Assembly: GCF_003334385.1 (NCBI RefSeq)
Contig: NZ_QOWN01000232.1
Strand: one strand, 5' to 3'
DNA from: Escherichia coli
GTDB lineage: Bacteria; Pseudomonadota; Gammaproteobacteria; Enterobacterales; Enterobacteriaceae
Length of the DNA: 201 nt
Shown: piece after piece, positions 88 to 125 of the stretch
Numbering within the stretch: the first letter of the stretch is position 1
How the letters are laid out: every line of letters starts with the position of its first letter
Position numbers and translations under genes: made by a program
Notes under the pieces: model-generated
What the model saw: the letters and a program-made list of their open reading frames with translations, nothing else
Told to the model about the DNA's origin: nothing
Databases searched by the model: none

Positions 88-125
88 ATATCTCAAAACA
101 GACTGTTAAGTCTTGTTTGATATAT
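88..125 (+). promoter_or_regulatory. boxB-like RNA hairpin of the spacer antitermination module
   Basis: Seen in sequence: 5' arm ATATCTCAAAACAGACT (88-104) pairs with 3' arm AGTCTTGTTTGATATAT (109-125) around the tetraloop GTTA (105-108), giving about 14 of 17 pairs with an internal mismatch or bulge near 98-99 / 114-115 and one near 92 / 121. It sits directly upstream of boxA, where E. coli has its boxB-like hairpin (CTCAAAAC...GTTTTGAGA). Confidence 0.7.

Follow-up and report, generated by a model that had tools for sequence, protein, structure and literature searches.

Introduction

In the rrn operons of Escherichia coli, nut-like boxB-boxA sites occur after P2 and again in the 16S-23S spacer, upstream of the 23S gene; of the two elements, boxA is necessary and sufficient to recruit NusB/NusE and to build the antitermination complex, and boxB is dispensable in the assays used, its presence having been called 'puzzling' (PMC10250234, PMC8632103, PMC2724277). 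In particular, deletion of the leader boxB has little effect (PMC10250234). A hairpin that precedes a boxA therefore raises the question of what it is kept for, and the stretch of 201 nucleotides analyzed here (the window), which holds such a hairpin at positions 88-125, raises a further one: its tip differs from the tip usually quoted for E. coli, and a preliminary description had attributed this to divergence in a separate lineage. Here, we ask where the window comes from, how the hairpin folds, whether its pairing is under selection, how its tip varies within E. coli, and which role best accounts for these observations.

Identity and Layout of the Locus

Identical copies of the window are present among 5426 complete E. 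coli genomes searched by megablast, and the match with the tRNA-Glu/23S spacer of the K-12 operon rrnG is 100%. In J53, a K-12 derivative, the identical copy lies between the 16S and 23S genes and adjoins clpB, which marks the operon as rrnG, and the gltW-rrlG spacer of MG1655 equals the window across the 199 bases that they share. Annotated 16S, tRNA-Glu and 23S genes flank the identical E. coli sequence, the locus being the tRNA-to-23S part of the 16S-23S spacer. The window is the E. coli K-12 rrnG spacer.

All of the features described below lie on the plus strand. The 3' two-thirds of tRNA-Glu(UUC) occupy positions 1-53 (Rfam tRNA model positions 22-71, 34.6 bits; gltW in the identical E. 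coli records), with the anticodon loop CUUUCAC at 10-16 and the CCA end at 51-53. They are followed by an upstream spacer hairpin at 60-84, by the boxB-like hairpin at 88-125 and by the spacer boxA at 127-139; StyR-44 (RF01830), a conserved spacer segment that continues into 23S, matches 131-201 with 79.9 bits (gathering score 54, E = 6.7e-13). Its 3' end is cut by the window edge and it overlaps boxA, not the hairpin. In a search of Rfam 15 with all 4227 families and E values up to 10, the tRNA and StyR-44 were the real matches and 88-125 was covered by noise only (E of at least 2.6); the match to RF01830 is confined to 131-201, and the hairpin is not a member of this family. A scan of both strands of the window for promoters and terminators found none, and the hairpin is not an intrinsic terminator, since its G-C pairs are few and a qualifying T run is lacking. 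In the StyR-44 segment, the hairpin at 166-186 (GAACAAU-GAAA-GUUGUUC) carries U174 where rrnB, rrnC and rrnE have C, an rrnG-specific polymorphism that turns a C-G pair into U.G.

A Two-Part Hairpin Directly Upstream of boxA

The hairpin, AUAUCUCAAAACAGACUGUUAAGUCUUGUUUGAUAUAU, has arms at 88-104 and 109-125 and the loop GUUA at 105-108. The minimum free energy of 88-125 is predicted to be -9.4 kcal/mol, compared with -3.3 +/- 1.75 for dinucleotide shuffles (z = -3.48), only one shuffle in 200 being equal, and folding of 54-201 gives the same hairpin. The arms thus pair in RNAfold as the preliminary description, which had suggested this check, had proposed. RNAfold on relatives and RNAalifold agree on its anatomy: a lower stem of 10 bp (88-97/116-125), a 2x2 internal loop (98-99/114-115), an upper stem of 5 bp (100-104/109-113) and the tetraloop, for an interrupted total of 15 bp. 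A repeat search with a 6-base seed misses the hairpin, in which no uninterrupted arm match reaches 6 bases.

Position T126 alone separates the hairpin from boxA, UGCUCUUUAAAAA, the NusB/NusE binding signal as read from the sequence, whose core at 127-135 is an exact UGCUCUUUA; the published rrn boxA is 5'-UGCUCUUUA-3' (PMC2724277). A stem-loop placed directly 5' of boxA, so that boxB precedes boxA, is the arrangement of an rrn nut-like site. Furthermore, the rrnB leader and the rrnA Ile/Ala spacer have hairpins of unrelated sequence that stop 2-3 nt short of the same boxA motif, and in the Glu-type spacers of Aeromonadales long, unrelated hairpins precede boxA. Published accounts disagree on whether the spacer set includes boxC, which is perhaps not defining; downstream of boxA in the window no match to the boxC-like GU-rich motif UGUGUGGG was found within two mismatches, and chance-level matches occur at 62-71 only.

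As judged from sequence and order, 88-125 and 127-139 are the known spacer boxB-boxA site in its rrnG allele, which has already been described. The label boxB would belong to 88-125 by virtue of its adjacency to boxA, and not to the hairpin at 60-84 with its GNRA-like loop. The title of the 1997 study by Pfeiffer and Hartmann reportedly concerns the spacer boxA, not the hairpin. The preliminary description was right that no new element is involved, since the hairpin occupies the boxB position, one base upstream of boxA (PMC10250234, PMC8632103).

Conservation of the Pairing Across Enterobacterales

Species-representative genomes were scanned for the 3' end of tRNA-Glu followed, after 55-85 nt, by TGCTCTTTAA, which gave 119 loci, spread over about 27 named genera of Enterobacterales and some Aeromonadales. 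From these, 80 distinct Enterobacterales Glu-type spacers were aligned by MAFFT, so that the alignment was not fitted to structure. The paired positions are complementary in 96.4% of cells, compared with 83.6% after column shuffling, a procedure that reached the observed value in none of 500 trials, and with 26-45% when the partner was slid by 1-3 columns. Changes on both sides are found in 12 of the 15 pairs and amount to 124 cells, where 24 are expected. RNAalifold, run without any structural hint, arrives at the two stem segments as well; it predicts 14 pairs, of which 12 persist despite changes on both sides. A register with two bulges was also considered; it gives 93.8% pairing and is beaten by the bulge-free 2x2 register, which reaches the overall value given above and 96.8% in the main helix, and in which pair 95/118 shows A-U to U-A covariation.

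The sequence of the hairpin is instead highly variable. The 80 spacers have 58 different tips, with loops from 3 to about 20 nt; UNCG-type loops (UACG, UUCG, UGCG, UCCG) occur in 37 spacers, and GUUA in the E. coli rrnG-type only. The rrnB allele, with cUUCGg, is a UNCG tetraloop, and the window loop, GUUA closed by U-A, is not. The end of the hairpin is always 0-3 nt before boxA across Enterobacterales; that boxA itself is invariant in the alignment is a consequence of the pattern used for the search and carries no independent weight.

The alignment indicates, therefore, that across Enterobacterales the pairing is conserved and that the sequence, the loop and the tip length are not. This agrees with the view, expressed in the preliminary description, that structure rather than sequence is under selection, and the covariation check that it had suggested, carried out here with pair counts on the MAFFT alignment and with RNAalifold, did reveal strong covariation.

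Two Versions of the Tip Within E. coli

Alignment of the four K-12 Glu-type spacers delimits a variable tip cassette at 100-113, which in the window reads AGACU-GUUA-AGUCU (rrnG-type). The tip that the preliminary description had given for E. coli, CUCAUC-UUCG-GGUGAUG, is correct and is the allele of K-12 rrnB, rrnC and rrnE. Between the two versions 10 of the 14 bases differ. From rrnB/C/E to rrnG, the pairs of the upper stem change from U-A to A-U, from C-G to G-C, from U.G to C-G and from C-G to U-A, with the central A-U unchanged, and GUUA takes the place of UUCG in the loop; the upper stem of 5 bp is retained, and to this extent the claim that a stem had been kept through changes on both arms stands. 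Since the window is K-12 rrnG itself, both versions coexist in one genome, and there is no divergence from "the E. coli version" to be explained.

The prevalence of the rrnG-type tip was estimated by megablast with a probe of 45 bases across the hairpin, which can match no other tip, since megablast needs 28 exact bases. The tip was found in 1750 of the 5426 genomes (1048 exact matches, 702 with one or two base differences); these genomes had one such place in the median and seven at most. The operon that carries it varies by strain: rrnG, adjoining clpB, in J53 and 95NR1; rrnB, adjoining murI-btuB, in 20AR0354; and rrnC, adjoining yieP and then tRNA-Asp and tRNA-Trp, in TUM13936. In this last strain the rrnG-type tip sits within a spacer that has rrnB-type polymorphisms on both sides, and the tip therefore recombines as a short cassette. 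These distributions are explained most simply by short-tract gene conversion that shuffles two self-complementary tip cassettes between rrn operons. In a direct experimental measurement of gene conversion among the rrn operons of E. coli, rrnG was the sole operon without observed conversions, which fits the retention of a divergent allele by K-12 rrnG (PMC8022953).

A tip that is polymorphic within a genome and within the species, and whose locus varies by strain, cannot serve as the lineage marker that it had been taken for; likewise, stepwise compensatory drift in a separate lineage does not describe two tips that differ as a block swapped by recombination. The GUUA tip was found in no other species of the 119-locus sample, which left out many species, E. 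coli included (contaminant contigs aside). Two entries of this sample, a 249-bp contig assigned to Chryseobacterium mucoviscidosis (L087) and a metagenome-assembled genome assigned to Oxalobacter (L122), carry a Glu-type spacer identical to that of E. coli rrnC/E; as they belong to unrelated phyla, contamination or mis-binning is the most likely origin.

The rrnG-type tip also creates an ACA triplet, lacking in the rrnB-type, at 98-100, where the internal loop meets the upper stem. ACA is the cleavage motif of MazF. This enzyme has been reported to cleave rrn precursors close to the leader boxA (PMC12541390). One could imagine that the cassettes are non-neutral and are kept for differing operon behavior, the ACA triplet, the exchange of the very stable cUUCGg for GUUA and a helix loosened by T121 causing operons to differ, under stress, in how the antitermination complex is reloaded or how well the 23S precursor survives; we regard this as a long shot.

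A Weakened Allele in K-12 rrnG

At position 121 the window has T. G is found there in the three other E. coli alleles examined, with or without the GUUA tip, and in the rrnB/C/E spacers; in the alignment, every one of the 79 remaining sequences has a base that pairs, whether G or another. By allele comparison and folding, this T, confined to the K-12-like rrnG allele, converts the C92-G121 pair of the lower stem into an uncompensated C.U mismatch. The predicted energies are -9.3 kcal/mol for the canonical hairpin of the T121 allele, -15.7 for the G121 allele and -14.9 for rrnB, T121 thus costing about 6 kcal/mol; a slipped register, in which 88-92 pair with 119-123, has -9.4 kcal/mol and is isoenergetic with the canonical one in the T121 allele. 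Among the 80 hairpins compared, whose median is -14.9 kcal/mol, that of the window has the lowest stability, and the exact T121 allele is present in 1048 of the 5426 genomes.

The statement that the hairpin keeps its fold holds, accordingly, for the tip and fails for the lower stem, where the mismatch and the loss that it entails had been overlooked. In the predicted structures the fold of the T121 allele is only partly kept, which points to weak constraint in the K-12 rrnG copy; with the weakest hairpin in the set of 80, this copy is more likely under relaxed than under strong constraint.

The Upstream Hairpin and the tRNA-Glu Anticodon Loop

The predicted upstream hairpin at 60-84 provides context for the site and lies outside the main finding. 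Its stems are 60-63/81-84 and 65-68/76-79, and its loop, GUGAAAG (69-75), is invariant in all 80 Enterobacterales Glu-type spacers, six of the eight stem pairs being changed on both sides. The loop contains the Glu codon GAA and is the exact reverse complement (7/7) of the tRNA-Glu anticodon loop CUUUCAC, 53 nt upstream; the duplex of the two has a predicted energy of -6.5 kcal/mol, and a shuffled spacer of 73 nt would contain such a 7-mer with a probability of 0.33%. Conceivably, the two loops form a kissing contact in the precursor.

The loop UGCAAA of the Ala-type spacer is complementary to the tRNA-Ala anticodon loop at 6 of 7 positions in E. coli; the relatives have GAAA or GCGA, and tRNA-Ile has no complementary loop. 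A general rule, by which spacer loops would complement the anticodon loop of their own tRNA, is rejected by the Ala-type relatives and by tRNA-Ile. The complementarity at the Glu loop is then either a coincidence or a Glu-specific feature, and the loops may simply be GNRA tetraloops, here GAAA with conserved flanks. Among the searchable papers, nothing directly relevant to anticodon complementarity or to the mosaicism of E. coli spacers was found.

Possible Roles of the Hairpin

The reading that we favor, and hold to be probable, is that 88-125 is the boxB of a second, spacer-borne nut-like antitermination site in rrnG, where it precedes boxA; its part in antitermination is suggested by its position. 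The hairpin would form first, as RNA polymerase leaves the spacer tRNA, and would lock up the flanking sequence, so that boxA would then emerge single-stranded, at a fixed distance from the helix, for binding by NusB and NusE (S10). The antitermination complex modified by Nus factors, SuhB and S4 would thereby be kept or re-established for the synthesis of 23S rRNA. In such a mechanism the helix alone would matter, any tip that pairs would be tolerated and the element would be weakly constrained, for which reason K-12 rrnG could carry the destabilizing T121.

The helix might, instead, be kept because it serves the processing or the stability of the RNA, for example by blocking or guiding the nucleases that act on the tRNA-Glu 3' trailer and the 23S 5' leader, or by insulating the folding of the tRNA from that of 23S, its adjacency to boxA being incidental. 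Such a role would reconcile a clearly selected helix with a published boxB that is dispensable both for antitermination and for 30S activity, and would suit a hairpin that lies 35 nt after a tRNA in need of excision. Yet a hairpin followed by boxA is also seen, each time in unrelated sequence, in the Ile/Ala spacers, in Aeromonadales and in the leader, which has no tRNA ahead of the hairpin; the helix thus goes with boxA and not with tRNA-Glu. Moreover, a stem of 15 interrupted base pairs is short for an RNase III substrate, and no nuclease site is known at 88-125. A processing role is the main rival reading, and we consider it unlikely.

It could also be argued that the hairpin is a palindrome with no function in the RNA, whose tips arise and spread by DNA processes such as quasi-palindrome templated repair and gene conversion, pairing being a by-product. 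The behavior of the tip as a mobile cassette, the stem mismatch tolerated in all of the genomes that carry the K-12 allele and the dispensability of boxB in assays would all be expected then. Such processes do not account, however, for pairing that is held through many sequences, in the lower as well as in the upper stem, over about 27 genera and with both-side changes in most pairs, nor for loops that vary freely while stems do not, and quasi-palindrome correction leaves the conserved distance to boxA unexplained; we find this origin very improbable. As for the proposal that the window derives from an enterobacterial genus other than that of E. coli, with a hairpin that drifted by compensatory substitutions and a tip that marks the lineage, its appeal came from the paired changes that separate this tip from that of rrnB/C/E and from the fact that tips do differ between genera. 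It is refuted, with virtually no probability left to it, by the identity of the window with K-12 rrnG, by the frequency of the tip in E. coli, where the other allele is found in the same chromosomes, and by the lack of the GUUA tip in the other species sampled.

The finding re-identifies the known boxB-boxA signal of the rrnG spacer, and little changes in the picture of this locus. It does show that differences from an "E. coli sequence" derived from rrnB may come from nothing more than variation between the seven rrn operons that a single genome carries, and it describes the tip at the population level, as a two-allele cassette that moves between operons. Furthermore, the pairing of the spacer hairpin is selected across Enterobacterales although the rrn boxB is dispensable in published assays, and for the question of what boxB is for, the Glu-type spacers offer a natural test set that covaries well.

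Comparison With Known Systems

The boxB of the lambda nut sites shares with the window hairpin its name and the fact of being a hairpin in a Nus-dependent antitermination signal. It lies 3' of boxA and is a 15-nt hairpin with a GNRA-like pentaloop, GAAAA or GAAGA, bound by N (PMC10250234, PMC8632103), whereas the window hairpin lies 5' of boxA, has a 15-bp stem with an internal loop and a GUUA tetraloop (UNCG-type in relatives), and has no N in the host. Its 5' position, its tetraloop and its interrupted stem exclude it from the lambda type.

In cyanobacteria, a Box-B helix is found just upstream of the Box-A antiterminator. This helix of the 16S-23S ITS is semi-conserved, varies in length and sequence between taxa while keeping its fold, and is compared between taxa (PMC12547637). 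That usage is probably the intuition behind the term "lineage marker"; the E. coli hairpin belongs to a different phylum and cannot be such a marker, because its variation is between the operons of one genome.

Closer to the window are the other hairpins of the rrn operons. The leader boxB, after P2, is likewise a hairpin, which stops 2-3 nt short of boxA; the RNA to which it belongs nucleates the Nus/SuhB/S4 antitermination complex. It shows no sequence similarity, being GC-rich (GCCGCUGAGAAAAAGCGAAGCGGC) where the window hairpin is AU-rich (AUAUCUCAAAAC...GUUUGAGAUAU). The Ile/Ala-type spacers of E. coli (rrnA, rrnD and rrnH) have a hairpin in the same position relative to boxA and 23S, also with a two-part stem and an internal loop; its sequence is unrelated, and it ends in the GNRA tetraloop GCAA (GAAA or GCGA in relatives), as opposed to the UNCG-type loops or GUUA of the Glu-type. 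In Enterobacterales Ala-type spacers (L132-L179, from metagenomes, and L127) the hairpin before boxA was seen to end in GCAA, GAAA or GCGA. The Glu-type spacers of Erwinia sp. S63 (L042) and Dryocola boscaweniae (L054) were found to carry the Ile/Ala-type hairpin (UACUUCAGAG...CUGCGAAGUA) before boxA, and whole boxB hairpins have thus been exchanged between spacer types.

The nearest system is the boxB-boxA of the E. coli rrn spacer itself (Berg, Squires & Squires 1989, cited in PMC10250234, PMC8632103, PMC2724277), in the same organism and the same class of locus, with the same order of hairpin, boxA UGCUCUUUA and 23S. In comparison with its better-known rrnB allele, which has cUUCGg, the window differs in its tip with the GUUA loop and in the C.U mismatch at 92/121, and nothing essential differs.
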